From contig JACPIA010000003.1 of assembly GCA_016188295.1 (NCBI GenBank), positions 30 through 64,029 of the forward strand: 64,000 bases of DNA, read 5' to 3'. The notes under the pieces are model-generated. The model worked only from the letters and a program-made list of their open reading frames with translations, searched no databases and was not told the DNA's origin. A program made the position numbers and the translations under genes. The stretch is from Candidatus Vogelbacteria bacterium. GTDB lineage: Bacteria > Patescibacteriota > Minisyncoccia > Phycocordibacterales > XYD1-FULL-46-19. Positions 6,991 to 46,652 of the stretch are shown here, piece by piece (position 1 is the first letter of the stretch; every line of letters starts with the position of its first letter).

Positions 6991-7287
6991 TTATTTTACC
7001 ATATCAGTCAAATAATCCCCAAGCTCATCATTTTTGGCCGCTTTATTGGGTTTAATGTAACCACATCTAACGCAAACGTGCTCAATAATAAACTCCCCGC
7101 CTTCCAGTTTAACCACTTTAGGCTCCATTAAGCCACCACATTGTGCCGCCCGATCGCCGGGTGTTACGTCCACATGTTTACTCCACAAACACTTAGAGCA
7201 ATGATTAGTGTACCCATCCCCCGCCACCTCCGCGCCACACTTCTCACACCCAAAATCCTCTTTAACTTTTTTAAATCCTTGGGACAT
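6991..7287 (-). CDS. RNHCP domain-containing zinc-ribbon protein
   Basis: Cys-rich protein with CxxC pairs (GCEKCG...HCSKC...CVRCG) and a YTNHC motif. Confidence 0.55.
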   Translation of the reverse strand: MSQGFKKVKEDFGCEKCGAEVAGDGYTNHCSKCLWSKHVDVTPGDRAAQCGGLMEPKVVKLEGGEFIIEHVCVRCGYIKPNKAAKNDELGDYLTDMVK

Positions 7288-7288
7288 G
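7246..7288. repeat. 43-bp direct repeat, copy 1 (covers the start codon and codons 1-14 of the RNHCP gene)
   Basis: acacccaaaatcctctttaacttttttaaatccttgggacatg, identical to 7800-7842. Confidence 0.85.
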
Positions 7289-7755: not shown

Positions 7756-7799
7756 AATTACAATATAACCACAAATGACGATTTACCGCAACTTAACTT

Positions 7800-7842
7800 A
7801 CACCCAAAATCCTCTTTAACTTTTTTAAATCCTTGGGACATG
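7800..7842. repeat. 43-bp direct repeat, copy 2 (orphan 5-prime fragment of the RNHCP gene abutting the tRNA-Gly 3-prime end)
   Basis: Perfect copy of 7246-7288. Ends 1 nt before tRNA-Gly. Confidence 0.85.
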
Positions 7843-7913
7843 TGCGGGATATGGGAATCGGACCCATGTCTCATCCTTGGGAAGGACGTGTTCTGCCATT
7901 GAACCAATCCCGC
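7843..7913 (-). tRNA. tRNA-Gly (anticodon CCC)
   Basis: Reverse complement GCGGGATTGGTTCAATGGCAGAAC...ttCCCaa...TGGGTCCGATTCCCATATCCCGCA. Confidence 0.8.
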
Positions 7914-21114: not shown

Positions 21115-21125
21115 AGATCTAATTA

Positions 21126-21713
21126 TCAAGGCGTTGCCTTGATAATTAGATACCGAAAGCAGGTGACCTCATGATCATTAACTAAGCCAACCGCCTGCAT
21201 CAAGGCATAGCAGATAGTGGGGCCGACAAATTTAAAGCCACGTTTTAGCAAATCTCTACTCATCGCCACGGACTCTTTAGTGGTAATGGGGATGTCGGTT
21301 AAGGATTTAATTTTATGATTAATCGGCTTACCGCCGACAAACTGCCAAATGTACCGGTCAAAAGAGCCAAACTCCTTTTGCACCTTTAAAAAGGCTTGGG
21401 CGTTTTTGATAGTAGCAACAATTTTTAGACGATTGCGGATAATGCCGGGGTCGACCAAGAGCCGTTTAACGTCCTTGGCGTCATAAGAGGCTATTTTCTT
21501 TACATTAAAATTAGCAAAAGCTTTACGATAGATCTGACGCTTATTGAGCACTGTTTGCCAGGTAAGTCCAGCTTGTGCACCTTCTAAAATCAAAAATTCA
21601 AACAGCGTTCGGTCGTCGTGGACCGGTACGCCCCACTCCTTATCGTGATAGGCGACCATTAGTGGGTTGCTTCCGCACCACTGACAGCGATATAGCCCAG
21701 ATTTTTTAGCCAT
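21126..21713 (-). CDS. tag: DNA-3-methyladenine glycosylase I (Tag)
   Basis: RCQWCGSNPLMVAYHDKEWGVPVHDD zinc-binding N-terminus and an HhH-GPD-like fold, 195 aa. Confidence 0.85.
   Translation of the reverse strand: MAKKSGLYRCQWCGSNPLMVAYHDKEWGVPVHDDRTLFEFLILEGAQAGLTWQTVLNKRQIYRKAFANFNVKKIASYDAKDVKRLLVDPGIIRNRLKIVATIKNAQAFLKVQKEFGSFDRYIWQFVGGKPINHKIKSLTDIPITTKESVAMSRDLLKRGFKFVGPTICYALMQAVGLVNDHEVTCFRYLIIKATP
21128..21152. repeat. REP-like palindrome variant (atcaaggcgttgccttgat), overlaps the tag stop
   Basis: Core caaggc-N3-gccttg is shared with the REP family at 21730, 34596 and 35011. Confidence 0.4.
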
Positions 21714-21729
21714 TATTTTTTTAAATACC

Positions 21730-21756
21730 CACTGTCAAGGCGAGGCCTTGACAGTG
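21730..21756. repeat. REP-like palindromic element (cactgtcaaggc gag gccttgacagtg)
   Basis: 12-bp arms with a 3-nt spacer. Same family as the elements flanking the RAYT gene at 34.6-35.1 kb. Confidence 0.7.
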
Positions 21757-21787: not shown

Positions 21788-21875
21788 TGGCGGAGGGTGA
21801 GGGATTTGAACCCTCGATGCCTTTCGGCATACACGCTTTCCAAGCGTGCGCACTAGACCGCTATGCGAACCCTCC
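21788..21875 (-). tRNA. tRNA-Ser (anticodon GGA), CCA encoded
   Basis: Reverse complement GGAGGGTTCGCATAGCGGTCTAGTGCG...ttGGAaa...long variable arm ATGCCGAAAGGCATC...GGTTCAAATCC...CCGCCA. Confidence 0.85.
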
Positions 21876-33239: not shown

Positions 33240-33814
33240 TGAAATCCGGGGATAACAGCGATTTGACCATTAATGGAAATCCTAATTTGCTTACAACGAT
33301 CTCCTCCACGTTTGCTTTTAATTTTGATCGTTAATGAGTCACCGGTGATATTAGAATTATTATGTAAAATCCTAGCCTCGGGATTGGGTCGGCGATAAGT
33401 AATATCAAAAACTCCAGTCAAATCATCACCACTTTGATCATAAAAATTAGTGATATCAGCTCCTTGTAGAGTATACTCCTCTACTATTTTATCTCCTTCA
33501 TCAAAAGTACCATCCTCCTTATTACTACCAATAAAACTGATAAATTTATTTGTATTATCACTATTAAAGTGAACCCCGTAAGACCTAGCGGCGGCAGGCC
33601 CGCTTGAACCCACTCTAGTACCAGTACCAAGCACTTGGGCGGTACGGATATTAACCGCCATCTCTTGAGCCATCAGTTCCAGCGCCGACTGGTCCTTAAA
33701 TTGCGGATAGTTGGCAACGATAATGCCAGTGATAATTAAAAAAATGACAATCACTACCAACATCTCCACCAAGGAGAAGCCACGATTTTGTTTAAATTTA
33801 AAAAGGGATAACAT
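33227..33814 (-). CDS. prepilin-type minor pilin
   Basis: N-terminal QNRGFSLVEMLVVIVIFLIITGII. Confidence 0.6.
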   Translation of the reverse strand: MLSLFKFKQNRGFSLVEMLVVIVIFLIITGIIVANYPQFKDQSALELMAQEMAVNIRTAQVLGTGTRVGSSGPAAARSYGVHFNSDNTNKFISFIGSNKEDGTFDEGDKIVEEYTLQGADITNFYDQSGDDLTGVFDITYRRPNPEARILHNNSNITGDSLTIKIKSKRGGDRCKQIRISINGQIAVIPGFQCQQ

Positions 33815-34553
33815 GCCAGGAAAAGAACAGAACCATCAACAAACCAAGAATCATAAATGGCGCAAAGGGCAACTCACTCTTTATTGTAATCAATTTACTC
33901 CCCCACCACAATCGCTTGAGTCGAGAAGCTACCATCAAACCGATACCCACTAAAGCCCCACTCCAAAAAGCAAGCGCCAAAGCGGATAATGTCGCCACCG
34001 GACCCAAGAGCCAACCAAGCGCCAAGCCGAGCTTGGCATCACCAAAACCCATCCAGCGTCCGCCCGAGACAGCCCACAGGAACGCGAAAAAAGCAAAACT
34101 CCCTAGGCCGGCCAATAAGTAAGCCCCGCCATTTGCCACTGCCCAAATTAAACTGAGGGCAATTAGGATGTACATTGGACCAGTGGGAATAATTTGATGC
34201 CGCCAGTCGTAGGCGCCGATGATAACTACCAGAGCCATTATCAACCAGTAAAAAGCGATTAAATTAAAATTAGGGAAAAAGCGCCAGACGGTCAAGACAA
34301 ACAACAGCCCGGTCAATACTTCAACAATTGGATATTGAAGTGAGATATGACTCTGACACTCGCGACAACGACCTTTTAAACTTAGGTAACTTAAAATGGG
34401 TACTAAATCTAAAGCGGTTAATTGCCGGCCACAAGCAAGACAGCCCGAGCGACCGGCAAGAGATTTGCCGGTGTTGTAGCGGATAATTAAGACATTTAAA
34501 AAACTGCCAATAATCGTGCCAAAAATAAAAATTAGTAGATACCACAGCCACAT
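33798..34553 (-). CDS. pilD: prepilin peptidase (A24 family, PilD)
   Basis: Tetracysteine CLACG...CRECQ motif and a polytopic membrane domain with catalytic Asp context. Confidence 0.8.
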   Translation of the reverse strand: MWLWYLLIFIFGTIIGSFLNVLIIRYNTGKSLAGRSGCLACGRQLTALDLVPILSYLSLKGRCRECQSHISLQYPIVEVLTGLLFVLTVWRFFPNFNLIAFYWLIMALVVIIGAYDWRHQIIPTGPMYILIALSLIWAVANGGAYLLAGLGSFAFFAFLWAVSGGRWMGFGDAKLGLALGWLLGPVATLSALALAFWSGALVGIGLMVASRLKRLWWGSKLITIKSELPFAPFMILGLLMVLFFSWHVIPF

Positions 34554-34595
34554 ATATCACTTAATTTTACCACGTTAGTCATTATTACCACCTTA

Positions 34596-34620
34596 AATGT
34601 CAAGGCCTCGCCTTGACATT
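34596..34620. repeat. REP palindrome (aatgtcaaggc ctc gccttgacatt), overlaps the RAYT stop
   Basis: Inverted-orientation copy of the 21730 element. Confidence 0.75.
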
Positions 34621-34992
34621 GTCGATGGAACCAGTTTGTTGATATTTTTTATTAAAATACATGGAATATCCAGTCATCAACTTTTGCACAAAAATACTAA
34701 TACCCTGTTCCGATTTTTCTTTTACTAGCAAATGAAAATGATTAGGCATTAAACAATAAGCACCGATATCAACTAGGGTACTACCTCGGTCTAAATTAAA
34801 AACTTTTTTTAAATCAGTCTGCTCTTGTCGCCAATGATCACTTAAATGGATAACTTTTTTGGCATTGGTAGTGTAAAGTAAGAGGATAAATCGTAGATGA
34901 TCATTATCGTCCAAGAAAATCTCACGACGATTAGTACCACGAGTGTATAAGTGATAATACTCATCGGGACTGAATTCCAATTTACGAGCCAT
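34600..34992 (-). CDS. REP-associated tyrosine transposase (RAYT; IS200/IS605-like HuH Y1 transposase)
   Basis: HuH motif CLMPNHFHLLV and catalytic Tyr region TGYSMYFNKKY, 130 aa. Flanked on both sides by REP palindromes. Confidence 0.75.
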   Translation of the reverse strand: MARKLEFSPDEYYHLYTRGTNRREIFLDDNDHLRFILLLYTTNAKKVIHLSDHWRQEQTDLKKVFNLDRGSTLVDIGAYCLMPNHFHLLVKEKSEQGISIFVQKLMTGYSMYFNKKYQQTGSIDNVKARP

Positions 34993-35010
34993 AACTTTAA
35001 TTTATTATAC

Positions 35011-35036
35011 CATGTCAAGGCCTCGCCTTGACAATG
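35011..35036. repeat. REP palindrome (catgtcaaggcctcgccttgacaatg)
   Basis: Same family. Confidence 0.7.
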
Positions 35037-35073
35037 AGGGGAAACAAAAAACCTCCTTGGTTGGAGGAGGGTT

Positions 35074-35128
35074 AATGTCAAGGCCTCGCCTTGCCGAAGG
35101 CTACGCCTTGCCGAAGGCTACCTAATTA
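35074..35128. repeat. degenerate REP plus 17-bp tandem duplication (cgccttgccgaaggcta x2)
   Basis: aatgtcaaggcctcgccttgccgaaggctacgccttgccgaaggctacc. Confidence 0.6.
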
Positions 35129-35574
35129 CAAACTCCAGCGCCTGCAGCTTCAGTATTTTTAGATGCACCTGTACTATCAACACACCAATAAGTGTTAGTA
35201 GTTGCAACTAAAGGAGATGATACTGCCCAAGCTGTTGCAGAAGTATTTGCATCAGTCGTACAAGTTAGATCAATATTCCCATTTGCACTTTTAACAGCCG
35301 TGATCAGACCAGCCAAGCCACCTTCGGCAGCTGTAGCACCAAACATACCACCAGCACAGGAATCTGCACTATCACCATAGTCAGAGTTAGTATCAAAGTA
35401 AATCTCTGCTTGGGCACGCATACTAGCCAATTGGGCCTTAATCGCCGCATCTTTAGCTTTGTTACGAGCGGTGTTGAGTGAGGTCAAGACCACACCGGAC
35501 AAGATACCAATGATGGCAATAACCACCAACAATTCGATTAACGTAAAACCTTTCGATGAACCTTTTTTAGACAT
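35122..35574 (-). CDS. pilA: type IV pilin (major pilin, PilA-like)
   Basis: N-terminal [23 protein letters not shown] class III signal and a C-terminal Cys pair. Confidence 0.8.
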
Positions 35575-35704
35575 AAATTTAAATTAATTATAATCTCGTT
35601 TTCGACGTTAGTTCTATTATACAGCACACCCGTAAAATGAGTACATCACGGGTCAAGCCCCTGTGGATATCCCGTAAAGCGCAGACGCCACGGGACTAGG
35701 TACC

Positions 35705-36913
35705 CTAGAACCCTGAAGCGATGTTATAGATAGGCACCAAGACGGAAGTAAGGAGAACACCCACTCCAATACCCAAAAAGACGATCAAAGCCGGCTCAAT
35801 CAAGCCCACCAAAGTGTCTACGGCATCATTAACCTCCCGACGATAAAAGCGCGAGAGCGTCTCCAAGACAAATCCCAATTTACCGGTCTCCTCACCCACC
35901 TTCATCATTTGAATCATAATGGGCGGAATATCCGAGTATTTGCTCATAATCTCGGATACCGCCGAGCCGGTTTTAATGGCGGCCGAGGCCGACAGCAAAA
36001 TATCGCGGAAGATGACATTGTTGACCACCTCGGCGGTAATCTCCAAGGCCCGGACCATCGAGATACCGCTCGTCAACATCGTATTTAAGTTATCGGCAAT
36101 CCGCGAGAGATAGAGCTTTTGGTACAAATTACCCACGTACGGAATCGCCAATTTAGCCGAGTCTAAAGAACGACGACCTTTCTCTGTCTGGATATAACGC
36201 AAAACAACAATCGCCACCGTAATTACCAAAATCAACAAAATTACGCCGTAGGCCACAAAAAAGTCGCTTAAACCGATCACTATCCGAGTATAGATCGGCA
36301 ATTCCTGCCCCGTCTCGATTAAAATCTGGGACAATTGCGGGATCACAAACATCAACATAATAATGAGTACCACGACAAAAGAAAAAATGATAAAAATCGG
36401 GTAGATCAAGGCATTTTTAGCGCGGCTGACCAACGCATAAGAGCGCTCTAAATAATCGGCCAAATAAGTAAAAGTCTCGGATAGTTTGCCGGTCTCTTCG
36501 CCGGACTTAACCATACTGACGTAAAAGTTAGAAAAAAGGTCCGGATGATGAGCAAAAGCAGTGGAGATCGGCTGACCCGCTTGGACATCATCTAAAATGG
36601 CGGTGAGTTTGGCGCGTAAAATAGGACTAGATGCCTCACCAGCCAGTAATTTAAAAGTAGCGGTGACCGATACCTTGGCTTCAAATAAAGTCGCGATCTG
36701 CCGCGACAAAATCACAATATCGCGCGACTTAACAGTATTAAATAAATGAAAGCGACTTAAAAATGATTTACTCTTAACCACCTCCGGCACAATTGAGAGT
36801 AAAATAAGACCCCGACGTTGGAGCGAGGCAATAGCTACATCAATCGAGGGTGCTTCGATTGAGCCACTTTGCTCAATACCCTCTTTGCCGGTAGCTTTGT
36901 AAATAAACAACAT
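35705..36913 (-). CDS. pilC: type IV pilus assembly platform protein PilC (GspF family)
   Basis: Two GspF repeats and 3 TM segments, 402 aa. Confidence 0.85.
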   Translation of the reverse strand: MLFIYKATGKEGIEQSGSIEAPSIDVAIASLQRRGLILLSIVPEVVKSKSFLSRFHLFNTVKSRDIVILSRQIATLFEAKVSVTATFKLLAGEASSPILRAKLTAILDDVQAGQPISTAFAHHPDLFSNFYVSMVKSGEETGKLSETFTYLADYLERSYALVSRAKNALIYPIFIIFSFVVVLIIMLMFVIPQLSQILIETGQELPIYTRIVIGLSDFFVAYGVILLILVITVAIVVLRYIQTEKGRRSLDSAKLAIPYVGNLYQKLYLSRIADNLNTMLTSGISMVRALEITAEVVNNVIFRDILLSASAAIKTGSAVSEIMSKYSDIPPIMIQMMKVGEETGKLGFVLETLSRFYRREVNDAVDTLVGLIEPALIVFLGIGVGVLLTSVLVPIYNIASGF

Positions 36914-38405: not shown

Positions 38406-39983
38406 TTATAGCTTATTAACCTCCTCAAAGGCAATCTGCCCCGCAAACGCCTTTTGCATCGCATCCTCCCGGATCGACAGAAAACCCTTGGAGCGCAGTA
38501 ATTTGTAAATATCGGTTTGACCGCCGTTTTTTAGAACAATCTTTTCTAAATCCTTATCCATTTCAAAAAACTCGGCCGCCGCCGTCCGACCGCGGGTACC
38601 GGAGGGACAAGAAGAACTGGACACCGATTTGTACACTTCAGCCGGAATAGCTAATTTAGAGCGATGCTCGGGCGACAAATCCGCCAACTCTTTATCGAGC
38701 ATCATTTTAAGTGAGTCAGCGAGTGGCTCTTTTTGTTTGGAGTCGCAGAGTATTGGCACTAAGCGCTGACTGATCACTAAATTGAGAGTTGGCGGGATCA
38801 AATACGGCTCGACTCCCATATCAATTAAACGCGGAATCGCGCCTGCGGCGGTATTAGTGTGCAGAGTGGACAACACCAAGTGACCAGTTAAAGCCGCCTG
38901 AATGGCAAGTTTAGCCGTCTCCCGATCACGGATCTCGCCAACCATAATAATGTCCGGATCTTGGCGCAAGATCGAACGGAGACCATTAGCAAAAGTGTAA
39001 TTAATTTCCGGCTGGACTTGAGATTGATTAACCCCAGTAATATCGTACTCAATTGGGTCCTCTAGACTGACAGTGTTGAATTTTTCTTTATCAATCTCAT
39101 TTAACATTGAGTAAAGGGTAGTGGTTTTACCCGAGCCAGTCGGGCCAGTGAGTAAGATCATCCCATACGGCCGCTTGAGCGCATTGCGAATCGAGTTAAC
39201 TACCCGCTCGTTTAGGCCTAAAGTCTCTAGTGTCACAAATTTATGATCAGGATCAAGAATACGGATCACCACCTTCTCGCCAAAAAAGGTTGGCAAGGTG
39301 GAAACCCGGAAGTCGATCTGCTTGCCTTCGACTTTAGCCGAAAAACGACCATCTTGCGGTTTACGTTTTTCATCTAACTTCATATTCGTCAAAATTTTGA
39401 CTCGAGAAACCACGGCATTATGAACGGTTACGGGCAACAATAAACTGGTATACAAGACGCCATCGACGCGGAAACGGACGCGCACCTTACCCGCCATCGG
39501 CTCAATATGAATGTCTGAGGCATTACCGCTAATCGCGTGCTGGAGAATAACACCGACAATTTTGGTTACCGGCGCTTCCTCCACTAAGCTGGCATCCTCG
39601 GCCTTACGTTTAGCGGCCGGCGAGCCAATCACCGTCTCGCTACCCGTACCACTGTCGCCGGAAGTAGTTTTATATTCTTCAAGGGCCTCATCGACCGCGC
39701 CGGAAATACTCTTATAACCCTCAAAGACTTTAGTAAACTGCTCGGTCGTGATTTTAAAAATCTTAAACGGCATATCACTCTTGGAAGCGATAAATTGGAG
39801 CGCATCGCGCGCCTCCATATTGTCGGGATCAACCATTCCCACCTCCAAAACACCATCTTTAACCGCCATCGGCACTAATTGATAGTACGAAGCGGCATCC
39901 TCTGGGACATAGCGCAAGACCGCCGCGGCGATATGTTTGTCGCCCAGCTCTTTAGTTGGGACTGTTAAATCATCAGTACTCAT
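38406..39983 (-). CDS. pilB: type IV pilus assembly ATPase PilB (GspE family)
   Basis: N-terminal GspII_E-like domain, Walker A GPTGSGKTTT and a tetracysteine motif, 525 aa. Confidence 0.85.
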   Translation of the reverse strand: MSTDDLTVPTKELGDKHIAAAVLRYVPEDAASYYQLVPMAVKDGVLEVGMVDPDNMEARDALQFIASKSDMPFKIFKITTEQFTKVFEGYKSISGAVDEALEEYKTTSGDSGTGSETVIGSPAAKRKAEDASLVEEAPVTKIVGVILQHAISGNASDIHIEPMAGKVRVRFRVDGVLYTSLLLPVTVHNAVVSRVKILTNMKLDEKRKPQDGRFSAKVEGKQIDFRVSTLPTFFGEKVVIRILDPDHKFVTLETLGLNERVVNSIRNALKRPYGMILLTGPTGSGKTTTLYSMLNEIDKEKFNTVSLEDPIEYDITGVNQSQVQPEINYTFANGLRSILRQDPDIIMVGEIRDRETAKLAIQAALTGHLVLSTLHTNTAAGAIPRLIDMGVEPYLIPPTLNLVISQRLVPILCDSKQKEPLADSLKMMLDKELADLSPEHRSKLAIPAEVYKSVSSSSCPSGTRGRTAAAEFFEMDKDLEKIVLKNGGQTDIYKLLRSKGFLSIREDAMQKAFAGQIAFEEVNKL

Positions 39984-44838: not shown

Positions 44839-44942
44839 AATTTTTGCGGCAAAGCCGCACGGATTTTTTTCCCTCCCGACCCGAGCCCGCCGCAGGCGGG
44901 CGAGAACAGAATTCCGTTCGAGCTATTTTAAGAATACACCGC
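44839..44942. repeat. GC-rich inverted repeat A (central copy)
   Basis: Reverse complement of 43822-43925. Contains sub-hairpins tgcggcaaagccgca and gcccgccgcaggcgggc. Confidence 0.85.
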
Positions 44943-45043
44943 AATTCAGGATTTCGCAAGTGGAAAGATGATGCCGAGCGGCGCGAAACGCGCCGCTCGG
45001 CTAGAATTTGAAAGGGCTTTTCGGGCGAAAAGGAAAAGGATTT
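44939..45043. repeat. GC-rich inverted repeat B (central copy, contiguous with A)
   Basis: Reverse complement of 46462-46566. Contains the perfect hairpin gccgagcggcgcg aaa cgcgccgctcggc. Confidence 0.85.
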
Positions 45044-45093
45044 ATCAATGAAGGGCAAAAGAAAATTTTTATCAATTTTAATCAAACAAAAAC

Positions 45094-46617
45094 ATGAAAT
45101 ACATAATCTATGCGAGAAAATCTACCGAGAGCGAGGAACGACAAATCATGTCTATTGAATCCCAGCTTTCTGAATTAAAAGAATTTGCCGCCAAAGAAAA
45201 ACTTGAAATTGTTGCTTCGCTTTGCGAAGCCCAAACTGCCAAAGAACCTGGGCGAATTAAATTCGCTGAAATGTTGTCATTTCTGGAGAGTGGAAAAGCA
45301 GACGGAATTCTCTCTTGGAATCCAGATCGTCTCGCCCGAAATTCCATAGACGGAGGACAGATTATCTATATGCTGGACACAGGAAAAATTAAGGACTTAA
45401 AATTTCCGACTCATTGGTTTGAAAATACACCGCAAGGAAAATTTATGCTGAACATTGCATTTGGGCAAAGCAAATACTATGTAGATAATCTAAGTGAAAA
45501 TATCAAACGCGGACATAGAGCAAAATTAAGAAAAAGCATTTGGCCCGGCTTTGCCCCGCTTGGCTACACCAACAATCATAAAACGCGAGATATTGATGTT
45601 GACCACGAAAAAGCTCCGTTCATACGAAAGGGTTTTGAATTGTATGCGACTGGAAAATATACGCTAAAACAGATTGCAAAAATTCTCAAAGATTTAGGAT
45701 TGCGAAGCTACAAAGGAAATGTCCTTTCAGTTTCCTGTGTCCAGCGATTTTTGCAGAATCGATTTTACTACGGACTGTTTGAATTCAAGGGCGAGACGCA
45801 TCAAGGAACGCACGAGCCAGTTATCACGAAGAAACTTTTTGATAAATGTCAGGAAGTTATGAAGGATCGCGGACATATTAAAACGAGAAAAGCAGAGAAA
45901 ACTTTTCCATTTCGCGGATTACTCGCTTGCGGAGAATGTAGTTGCGCTATTACTGCCGAGACACAAAAAGGTCATAACTATTATCGTTGCACGAAAAAGA
46001 AAATCGCTTGTTCGCAAAAATATGTCCGCGAAGAATTACTAACGGAACAAGTAAAAAGTTTTCTTCAAAAAGTTTCTTTATCGAGCCAAGACACCGAAAA
46101 AGTTTTGCGTGAGCTGGACAAAGACGAGCAGAAAGCAAAAGCGAGTAGTTTCGTAATCGTTCAAAATCTGAAGAGTGAGTTATCCGACATCGGCACAAAA
46201 TTGAATAAATTACTTTCTGCGTATCTCGACGAGATAATTACTTCGGAAGAGTATGCCACGCAAAAACAAAAAATGCTCTCACTCAAAATAGAGTGTGCGG
46301 AAGAAATCAGGGAAATTGAAGATGGAATTGTGTCTTGGCTCGAACCGGCTCGTGCGTGGATTAAATCCTTAAATCAAGCAGAGAAACTGCTTTCCTCTGG
46401 GGATAAGTCGGAAATGACAACATTTCTAAAACAAAACGGCTCGAACCATATTTTGATCGATAAATCCTTTTCCTTTTCGCCCGAAAAGCCCTTTCAAATT
46501 CTAGCCGAGCGGCGCGTTTCGCGCCGCTCGGCATCATCTTTCCACTTGCGAAATCCTGAATTGCGGAAGGGGAGGGATTCGAACCCTCGAGAGACTTTTA
46601 CATCCCTACCTCGTTAG
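45094..46617 (+). CDS. large serine recombinase (resolvase/invertase N-domain plus recombinase domain plus zinc ribbon plus coiled-coil)
   Basis: N-terminal IIYARKSTESEERQIMSIESQ catalytic-Ser region, recombinase domain and zinc ribbon CGECSC...YYRCTKKKIAC, 507 aa. The last ~50 codons read through repeat B-prime into the tRNA-Ser flank. The true C-terminus is probably near 46460. Confidence 0.8.
   Translation: MKYIIYARKSTESEERQIMSIESQLSELKEFAAKEKLEIVASLCEAQTAKEPGRIKFAEMLSFLESGKADGILSWNPDRLARNSIDGGQIIYMLDTGKIKDLKFPTHWFENTPQGKFMLNIAFGQSKYYVDNLSENIKRGHRAKLRKSIWPGFAPLGYTNNHKTRDIDVDHEKAPFIRKGFELYATGKYTLKQIAKILKDLGLRSYKGNVLSVSCVQRFLQNRFYYGLFEFKGETHQGTHEPVITKKLFDKCQEVMKDRGHIKTRKAEKTFPFRGLLACGECSCAITAETQKGHNYYRCTKKKIACSQKYVREELLTEQVKSFLQKVSLSSQDTEKVLRELDKDEQKAKASSFVIVQNLKSELSDIGTKLNKLLSAYLDEIITSEEYATQKQKMLSLKIECAEEIREIEDGIVSWLEPARAWIKSLNQAEKLLSSGDKSEMTTFLKQNGSNHILIDKSFSFSPEKPFQILAERRVSRRSASSFHLRNPELRKGRDSNPRETFTSLPR
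46462..46566. repeat. GC-rich inverted repeat B-prime, abutting and overlapping by about 3 nt the 3-prime end of tRNA-Ser(GCT)
   Basis: aaatccttttccttttcgcccgaaaagccctttcaaattctagccgagcggcgcgtttcgcgccgctcggcatcatctttccacttgcgaaatcctgaattgcgg. Confidence 0.85.
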
Positions 46618-46652
46618 CAGTGAGGCGCTTTCGACCACTCAGCCACCCCTCC
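46564..46652 (-). tRNA. tRNA-Ser (anticodon GCT)
   Basis: Reverse complement GGAGGGGTGGCTGAGTGGTCGAAAGCG...ctGCTaa...long variable arm...GGTTCGAATCCCTCCCCTTCCG. Confidence 0.8.

Follow-up and report, generated by a model that had tools for sequence, protein, structure and literature searches.

Between the type IV pilus genes pilA and pilD of a Candidatus Vogelbacteria genome (contig JACPIA010000003.1) lies an open reading frame (ORF) for a protein of 130 amino acids, bordered by short palindromes. Here, we analysed the 64-kb stretch of DNA that contains it, which will be hereafter referred to as the window. The ORF and its palindromes are probably a decaying REPtron, composed of a gene that resembles the tyrosine transposases linked to repetitive extragenic palindromes (REPs), called RAYTs, such as TnpAREP of Escherichia coli (E. 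coli), and of flanking REP hairpins, and located in the spacer between pilA and pilD in a Patescibacteria genome of the Vogelbacteria type. A first-pass annotation of the same DNA had described a RAYT inserted in the pilus operon. Our analysis reveals that only ~122 codons of the gene are left and that the catalytic tyrosine is missing, and sequence comparison indicates that the RAYT at this position is probably an old resident that is being lost, not a recent insertion. The source genome was viewed through the window, and the RAYT and REP counts given for this genome apply to it.

As a degenerate REPtron, the element is a known kind of system, and databases already name the protein family 'transposase' or 'RayT'. 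Among the papers covered by full-text searches, none links RAYTs or REPs with Patescibacteria or the candidate phyla radiation (CPR), and a 2018 paper on HuH phylogenomics leaves Patescibacteria/CPR unmentioned.

Results

The 130-residue ORF matches the Pfam family Y1_Tnp with an E-value of 3.7e-9. The match is partial, covering positions 25-87 of the 121 in the profile; full-length homologues extend to position 119. The HuH motif named in the first-pass annotation is present and corresponds to residues 85-87 (H85-F-H87). The ORF has 2,662 homologues. The full-length ones have 217-228 amino acids and are 53-64% identical; their matches span residues 1 to ~123, or 90-100% of the query. When aligned, the window protein tracks the family to ...KKYQQTGS and then departs into IDNVKARP and a stop. 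These last 8 residues have no homology to the family at this position, and VKARP and the stop are read from REP1, the downstream palindrome, which overlaps the ORF and supplies its TGA codon. Homology is thus confined to residues 1-122 of family members of ~225 residues, and ~100 residues are missing. The absent part includes strand β4, helix αD with the catalytic tyrosine (YIHLNP), and the C-terminal domain.

Residues H85, H87, Y145, N149 and P150 are invariant in 66 homologues. In the alignment of the family profile with E. coli TnpAREP (PDB-id 4er8), HFH and AYIHLNPVK pair with HMH and DYIYINPVKH, and Y145, N149 and the HuH motif align with Y115, N119 and H59/H61, respectively. The structure paper on TnpAREP gives H59/H61, the catalytic Y115, N119 and H123 (PMC3479197), a numbering consistent with this alignment. 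The catalytic Tyr and the metal-binding Asn on αD are both missing from the window ORF and are both found in its full-length relatives. The segment GYSMYFNKKY, which had been taken for the Tyr motif, is a conserved helix, αC, upstream of the true catalytic motif YIHLNP. The AlphaFold model of a full-length homologue, P0057 (pLDDT 91.7, pTM 0.89), comprises β1 [12-19], αA [29-42], β2 [74-81], β3 [85-92], which bears the HuH motif, αC [97-116], β4 [129-133] and αD [136-153]; the C-terminal domain that comes next is helical and forms an extension of ~75 residues. Since the model puts β4 and αD past the break, the window product is predicted to end before both. With β4, the C-terminal domain and the helix that bears the catalytic Tyr all lost, it should be unable to act as a nuclease. 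The ORF is most likely a pseudogene, and its product would be inactive.

The exact window protein has a database entry under the title 'MAG: transposase [Candidatus Vogelbacteria bacterium]', where MAG stands for metagenome-assembled genome, and the same allele is found in L001, an assembly of an independent read set (SRR12113419, 1085-bp contig). No remnant of the C-terminal half of the RAYT is found anywhere in the window, and no other form that is truncated and joined to a REP is found among the 2,662 homologues. Four short homologues (P0063, P0108, P0091 and P0010) were considered as such forms, and they are ended by contig ends instead. A pair of REPs 401 bp apart in L009 was also considered as enclosing a truncated RAYT; what lies between them belongs to a MutY/Nth-like gene that has a REP in frame. 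Full-length genes can also have their stop codon within the 3' REP, for example those of L038 and L124, which end in ...VKAVP and ...VKVTP, respectively. The VKARP tail of the window ORF is therefore a normal feature of the family, and only the middle of the gene is gone.

The assignment to the RAYT class in the first-pass annotation is upheld by the HuH profile match, by the P0057 model, whose nearest solved structure is 4er8, and by the palindrome, which also flanks full-length homologues in many genomes. In a Foldseek search with the P0057 model, the top solved structure was 4er8 (E 1.3e-5, probability 1.00, target TM 0.66), a REP-associated tyrosine transposase in complex with a REP hairpin. 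It was followed by the ISDra2, IS608 and IS200 transposases, interleaved with Thg1-type guanylyltransferases of lower TM. REP_Tyr_transpos was the sole transposase model matched in NCBIfam. The NF047646 equivalog cut-off of 80 bits was not reached by the window ORF (23.4 bits) or by full-length homologues (42-43 bits), so the Patescibacteria family is a distant RAYT-like lineage and not an equivalog of the proteobacterial RAYTs. The profile match to 4er8 at the sequence level is weak (E 0.53). A phmmer search of the 130-residue ORF against the Protein Data Bank returned spurious matches to a de novo TIM barrel and to cupins, and 4er8 was reached by the profile search. Insertion sequences (IS) of the IS200/IS605 type are present as several identical copies in a genome, often together with tnpB, and their left and right subterminal hairpins are distinct and are not dispersed on their own. 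The window, in contrast, has a single RAYT copy, which is truncated and has no adjoining tnpB; identical hairpins are found on both of its sides, and solitary hairpins elsewhere.

The pattern TGTCAAGGC-N3-GCCTTGACA, with up to 3 mismatches, has 5 matches in the window, compared with 0.01 expected. REP-derived 16-mers are the commonest 16-mers in the window, with 4 occurrences in 64 kb; abundance of the flanking 16-mers, among the highest in the genome, is a criterion for RAYTs (PMC5581495). Folded as single-stranded DNA (ssDNA), the REP hairpins of the window have energies of -9 to -14.7 kcal/mol and are far more stable than shuffled sequence (REP1: -10.8 kcal/mol, z -6.0). The exact 18-base pattern of the REP was searched in 185,579 species-representative genomes. 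At least 112 stretches were found, while by our own arithmetic chance would give ~9 over the entire collection. Most of the listed matches belong, by record title, to Patescibacteria, namely Kaiser-, Lloyd-, Vogel- and Nomurabacteria, Paceibacterota, and MAGs labelled 'Saccharibacteria'. The same 8-bp arms occur in at least 85 loci from Patescibacteria-type assemblies, and assemblies other than the window have at least 8-9 separate REP loci each. Because the centres differ between loci (TGTCAAGG-TTAAA-CCTTGACA, TGTCAAGG-GTAAC-CCTTGACA, TGTCAAGG-TGCAA-CCTTGACA and TGTCAAGG-TGTCA-CCTTGACA), the 8-bp arm is what is conserved in the REP. Covariation is seen at the ninth base pair (C-G, T-A, G-C), and two independent copies, at window position 21124 and in L034, compensate for a G-to-A change at position 2 of the arm. 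Of 101 Patescibacteria copies, 31 have a stem that extends by 3 bp or more beyond the conserved sequence, against ~1.6 by chance. An imperfect variant, GTAGCC...CGGCAAGG, is also found.

RAYT genes in the REP loci were found with a hidden Markov model built from the family alignment and run over six-frame ORFs. In metagenome assemblies of the Patescibacteria type, at least 17 loci other than that of the window have a full-length RAYT gene bracketed by the palindrome TGTCAAGG-N5-CCTTGACA. Bracketing is tight in L021, L025, L038, L043, L049, L089, L093 and L105, and the palindrome is visible on one side of the gene in L034, L036, L062, L035/L040 and L094. The loci L116, L117, L119-121, L123 and L124, which were fetched via homologues, have the same layout with a different palindrome centre. 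The REPtron can be described as beginning with at least one imperfect REP, which in several loci has a GTAGCC-type unit; next come a terminator and a REP, and then the RAYT gene with a last REP behind it. Among the matches listed, most of the remaining REP copies are solitary, and many solitary copies lie elsewhere in the assemblies that hold RAYT genes. A phage vehicle for REP and RAYT was considered and rejected: the REP pattern has 14 matches in IMG/VR, about the chance level by a rough estimate of collection size, and no RAYT homologues were found in the viral contigs of IMG/VR. As a separate observation, short-read contigs end at or beside REPs near RAYT genes in L001, L038 and L043, which suggests that REPs break short-read assemblies of Patescibacteria genomes.

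The two closest relatives, L115 and L114, have the gene order of the window, and L115 is the nearer one in every gene compared (pilD 87% and ligA 85%, against 81% and 80% for L114). In L115, the pilA-pilD spacer has 75 bp and contains one terminator-like hairpin and no REP. The spacer of L114 has 158 bp and is made of GTAGCCTTCGGCAAGGC-AAC-GCCTTGACA, a terminator and then TGTCAAGGC-AAC-GCCTTGACA. That of the window has 568 bp and consists of an L114-type module, the RAYT fragment and a third REP. When a 415-bp segment is taken out, the window is collinear with L114 up to the sequence leading into pilD. The spacer alignment with L114 was made after this removal; with the insert in, MAFFT misplaced the right flank.

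More distant relatives, in which PilD is 51-56% identical, keep the gene. In L117, pilA is followed by two imperfect REPs, a terminator and a REP, and then by a full-length RAYT of 228 residues, a further REP and pilD. The arrangement in L124 is the same, with a RAYT of 235 residues, and L123 has REP-RAYT-REP, one ORF, a REP and pilD. The RAYT gene therefore lies directly 5' of pilD in L117 and L124 and one ORF off in L123. No RAYT is found at the pilA-pilD position in L122 and L056. The N-terminal identity of the RAYTs among the window, L117, L123 and L124 is 53-57%, matching that of PilD, which fits vertical inheritance. The upstream REP-terminator-REP module also precedes full-length RAYT genes in L038, L043, L116 and L119. 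The proposed insertion in the operon is thus borne out when the window is compared with its two nearest relatives, whose spacers are shorter and without RAYT, whereas L117, L124 and L123, which hold the full-length gene, speak against it. Because relatives keep the full gene, one keeps only REPs and one keeps nothing, the pilA-pilD locus is probably ancestral for RAYT. In what is probably the most economical history, a REPtron in the spacer of the ancestor stayed intact in L117 and L124, was internally deleted in the window, was reduced to the two upstream REPs in L114, and is gone in L115.

RAYT genes were also seen beside other pilus-type clusters. In L116 (6001-9711), the gene lies 5' of T2SSE-T2SSF, genes of the type II secretion system (T2SS) type; in L119 (424-5045), a toxin-antitoxin pair separates it from a T2SS-type cluster; and in L117, L124 and the window it lies between pilA and pilD. 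About 12 other RAYT loci have no pilus gene within the fetched blocks, and the association of RAYT with pilus genes is a putative one. An orthologue of a second pilus cluster, of the kind seen in L116 and L119, was sought in the window, and only paralogous matches were found.

About 30 of the 101 REP copies in Patescibacteria loci are in frame within long ORFs (L004, L009, L013, L023, L031, L050, L054, L056, L060, L061, L066, L074, L076, L082, L084, L098, L109, L111 and L113). The inserted 21-nt REP adds ~8 residues (~24 nt, 8 codons). In-frame REPs encode (M/L/V)SRxxLD or CQGxALT, and the third frame gives VKAxP and then a stop. Host genes confirmed with Pfam are TrmD, Dus, ThyX, TsaD, CarB and TopA; LigA, SMC and a MutY-like glycosylase were identified by eye or from an alignment with the ligA of the window. 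Several of the sites are orthologous across assemblies (five loci share the one in TrmD and four the one in CarB, for instance), and at the ThyX site L074 and L109 have opposite loop orientations. In the window, TsaD, LigA and a glycosyltransferase have no REP at the sites that carry one in other Patescibacteria.

The minus-strand gene order around the module is pilB, a response regulator, pilT, pilC, pilA, the 130-residue ORF, pilD, four minor pilins and ligA. The position of the module between pilA and pilD, all on the minus strand, and the placement of one REP downstream over the ORF stop and of two REPs upstream agree with the first-pass annotation (Table 1). The stop codon of pilA immediately precedes REP3, ahead of which, on the minus strand, stands the tandemly duplicated 17-nt unit GTAGCCTTCGGCAAGGC. 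A hairpin with a T-run is found at the equivalent position of the module in L114, L117, L124, L038, L043, L116 and L119. The pilD gene is preceded by the box GTGGTAAAAT, small variants of which are found in L114 and L115. The terminator after pilA and this conserved -10-like box before pilD suggest that the module lies between two transcription units and not inside one, contrary to the operonic context that had been proposed. On the minus strand, REP2 is followed by TGGTATAAT. The promoter scan called no sigma-70 promoter for the RAYT fragment; the spacing of 19 nt from TTGTCA in REP2 to TGGTATAAT is beyond the scanning range of the tool.

Table 1 Features of the pilA-pilD locus and REP copies in the window.
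Feature	Position	Strand
pilB	38406-39983	-
pilC	35705-36913	-
pilA, major pilin (N_methyl motif), upstream neighbour of RAYT fragment	35122-35574	-
REP3, imperfect, outer arm CGGCAAGGC in place of TGTCAAGGC	35075-35122	
Intrinsic-terminator-like hairpin CCTCCTCCAACCAAGGAGG then TTTTTTGTTT (T-run), between REP3 and REP2	35042-35070	-
REP2, TGTCAAGGC-CTC-GCCTTGACA, 20 nt 5' of ORF start	35012-35036	
415-bp segment with RAYT fragment and one REP copy, extra relative to L114	34598-35012	-
Truncated RAYT-like Y1/HuH gene, 130 aa	34600-34992	-
REP1, perfect hairpin AATGTCAAGGC-CTC-GCCTTGACATT, 11-bp stem, 3-nt loop	34596-34620	
pilD, prepilin peptidase, downstream neighbour of RAYT fragment	33798-34553	-
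Further REP, CACTGTCAAGGC-GAG-GCCTTGACAGTG, 12-bp stem, between tag start and tRNA-Ser	21730-21756	
Further REP, variant TATCAAGGC-GTT-GCCTTGATA, 16-bp stem, overlaps tag stop codon	21117-21151	

The two further REPs of the window bracket tag (3-methyladenine glycosylase I, 21126-21713, minus strand), which adjoins tRNA-Ser(gga) at 21788-21875. Like that of the RAYT fragment, the stop codon of tag is inside a REP (...IKATP and stop). In the pilC-pilA spacer (window 35575-35704; L114 8622-8739; L115 2972-3066), the two CCCGT...ACGGG hairpins reported earlier do exist; in the window they are similar to each other and have the form CCCGTG...TACGGG, and the second one is kept in L114, where it has an additional C-G pair and comes with a -10 box. 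The window, L114 and L115 all share a GTATAAT box and the leader TAACGTCGAAAACGAGATTATAATTAATT in this spacer. An Rfam search over 34400-35900, which includes these hairpins, gave no credible match.

Elsewhere in the window, the region 44939-46652 contains a gene for a large serine recombinase (45094-46617), which has Resolvase, Recombinase and Zn_ribbon_recom domains. The gene lies between 114-nt inverted repeats, 44939-45052 and 46453-46566, which are 98% complementary and have a GC-rich palindrome, and the right repeat abuts tRNA-Ser(gct) at 46563-46652. This region could be an invertible or an integrated element. A 46-nt direct repeat (7243-7288 and 7797-7842, 98% identical), which ends at tRNA-Gly(ccc) 7842-7913, resembles the att sites of a small integrated segment. 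Third-party annotation (TPA) MAGs labelled 'uncultured Candidatus Saccharibacteria' (L114, L004 = CAZZPK010000006.1, and others) have proteins that are 80-95% identical to those of the Vogelbacteria-labelled genome, and the class-level labels of these records therefore look unreliable.

Discussion

The full-length members of ~225 residues would be HuH ssDNA nucleases with an invariant HxH metal site and the Tyr of the YIHLNP helix. By analogy with TnpAREP, for which a model of REP binding, cleavage and rejoining on ssDNA has been described (PMC3479197, PMC8266576), the full-length protein may bind folded TGTCAAGG-N5-CCTTGACA on ssDNA and cut and rejoin beside the hairpin, spreading the REPs. 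In the window, codons ~123 to ~217 have been removed, either by an internal deletion or by insertion of a REP and subsequent REP-REP recombination, which joined residue 122 to the REP-encoded tail VKARP and its stop. The REPs and the embedded terminator are still there. Transcripts of pilA are expected to end at the terminator inside the module, and pilD is expected to start from its own promoter, with the conserved GTGGTAAAAT box, downstream of REP1. Since pilA would end inside the module and pilD would have its own promoter, the remnant is probably harmless to pilus expression.

Several observations weigh against this reading. The RAYTs closest to the window fragment, in L116 and L119 (62-66% identity), are in other genomic contexts, and the positional homologues are 55-57% identical. 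The GC content of the RAYT gene is below that of the host locus by ~1-13 points in all 15 loci (L021, L025, L034, L038, L043, L049, L062, L089, L093, L105, L116, L117, L119, L123 and L124), and it is 33.7% in the window fragment (34622-34992), compared with 43.6% for the window. The gene may to some extent have moved horizontally, or may have inserted repeatedly at a hot spot formed by REPs, and the latter stays alive because of the closest RAYTs elsewhere and the low RAYT GC. The 122 retained codons are undecayed, as the frame is open and all family-invariant residues there are kept; the deletion is therefore recent or the fragment is under selection. Furthermore, the mechanism is modelled on E. 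coli TnpAREP, which is 14% identical in structural alignment.

The low GC of the fragment and the other contexts of its closest relatives would also be expected if an autonomous IS200/IS605-type element, or else a cassette bounded by REPs, had recently inserted into a REP that was already present in the pilA-pilD spacer of this lineage. Such an insertion would account for the 415 bp missing from the two nearest relatives, for the single L114 REP exactly at the junction, and for the IS200-like layout of a gene between hairpins. It is, however, unlikely. Low GC is a family trait in all 15 loci, full-length homologues are found at the equivalent place behind an equal module in L117 and L124 and nearby in L123, and there is no tnpB. 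The REPs are mostly solitary, unlike IS ends, and the inserted gene would have been truncated and non-functional.

The intact ORF, in which the conserved N-terminal residues are all kept, the TGGTATAAT box after REP2 and the presence of the same allele in the independent assembly L001 would fit a functional short protein, acting independently of nuclease activity as a REP-hairpin-binding regulator or as an inhibitor of a full-length RAYT elsewhere. We regard this as quite improbable, given that no second truncated-plus-REP form was found among the 2,662 homologues, in which the short entries are cut by contig ends, and that no sigma-70-type promoter was called. A stable fold is also doubtful, because the break removes β4 of a four-stranded sheet together with αD.

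A bolder reading, which we consider very unlikely, is that Patescibacteria (Paceibacteria-type lineages) have a hitherto undescribed REP system with arms shared across many genera, routine in-frame copies in essential genes and a HuH nuclease long kept in or by pilus/DNA-uptake clusters, to which it would be functionally linked. The nuclease could then process incoming ssDNA, or the palindrome could act as a DNA-uptake or self-recognition sequence and not purely as a selfish repeat. Finally, it is extremely improbable that the palindromes are ordinary terminators or regulatory hairpins of the pilus genes with a transposase remnant adjacent by coincidence: they have stable folds and are placed where genes end, one behind the stop of pilA and others over the stops of tag and RAYT, but no T-run follows the REPs, a separate terminator stands between them, the 8-bp arms recur in at least 85 Patescibacteria-type loci and bracket RAYT genes in at least 17, and about one third of the copies are in frame within housekeeping genes.

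For the window, the result that the element is probably a decaying REPtron is mainly corrective, as the 'transposase' would be a dead remnant and the pilus locus not freshly disrupted. In a broader context, Patescibacteria have their own REP/RAYT system, for which a concrete REP consensus and a REPtron architecture are defined here. The series from full gene to truncated gene to REPs only to nothing, at syntenic loci, makes a clean natural case of RAYT loss, which the REPIN/RAYT literature predicts and seldom shows at one locus. In-frame REPs and assembly breaks at REPs matter for the annotation and binning of Patescibacteria genomes.

Comparison with known systems

The Patescibacteria family shares with E. 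coli TnpAREP, a RAYT of group 2, the Y1 HuH fold with HxH and a Tyr-x3-Asn helix. As in the E. coli REPtron, the gene is bracketed by short GC-rich palindromes that are also dispersed through the genome, and its genomic position is conserved among relatives (PMC3479197, PMC8266576, PMC5581495). The Patescibacteria REP is a perfect palindrome, like the second REP group in PMC8266576. The family differs from TnpAREP in its low identity in structural alignment and in its helical C-terminal extension, and the window copy is in addition truncated and without the catalytic Tyr. The REP arms are conserved across many genera and are not species-specific, the copy number looks low in the window (5 in 64 kb), and many copies in Patescibacteria lie within coding sequence.

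With the TnpA proteins of the IS200/IS605 family (IS608, ISDra2 and IS200), the gene shares Pfam Y1_Tnp, the fold, and a coding sequence bordered by hairpins. It differs in that the window element lacks tnpB, is present in a single copy in the window, and occupies a locus that is syntenic in relatives. Patescibacteria hairpins are mostly solitary, no NCBIfam IS200 model was matched, and the solved IS transposases score below TnpAREP against the family model.

Rickettsia palindromic elements (RPEs) are short palindromic mobile repeats of ~100-150 bp, which are found in frame within housekeeping genes and encode a short peptide in variable loops. To our knowledge, RPEs have no dedicated RAYT. 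The in-frame palindromes in TrmD, Dus, ThyX, TsaD, CarB, TopA and LigA of other Patescibacteria are similar to RPEs in this respect, whereas the Patescibacteria insert is only ~24 nt long and comes with an associated RAYT-like gene.

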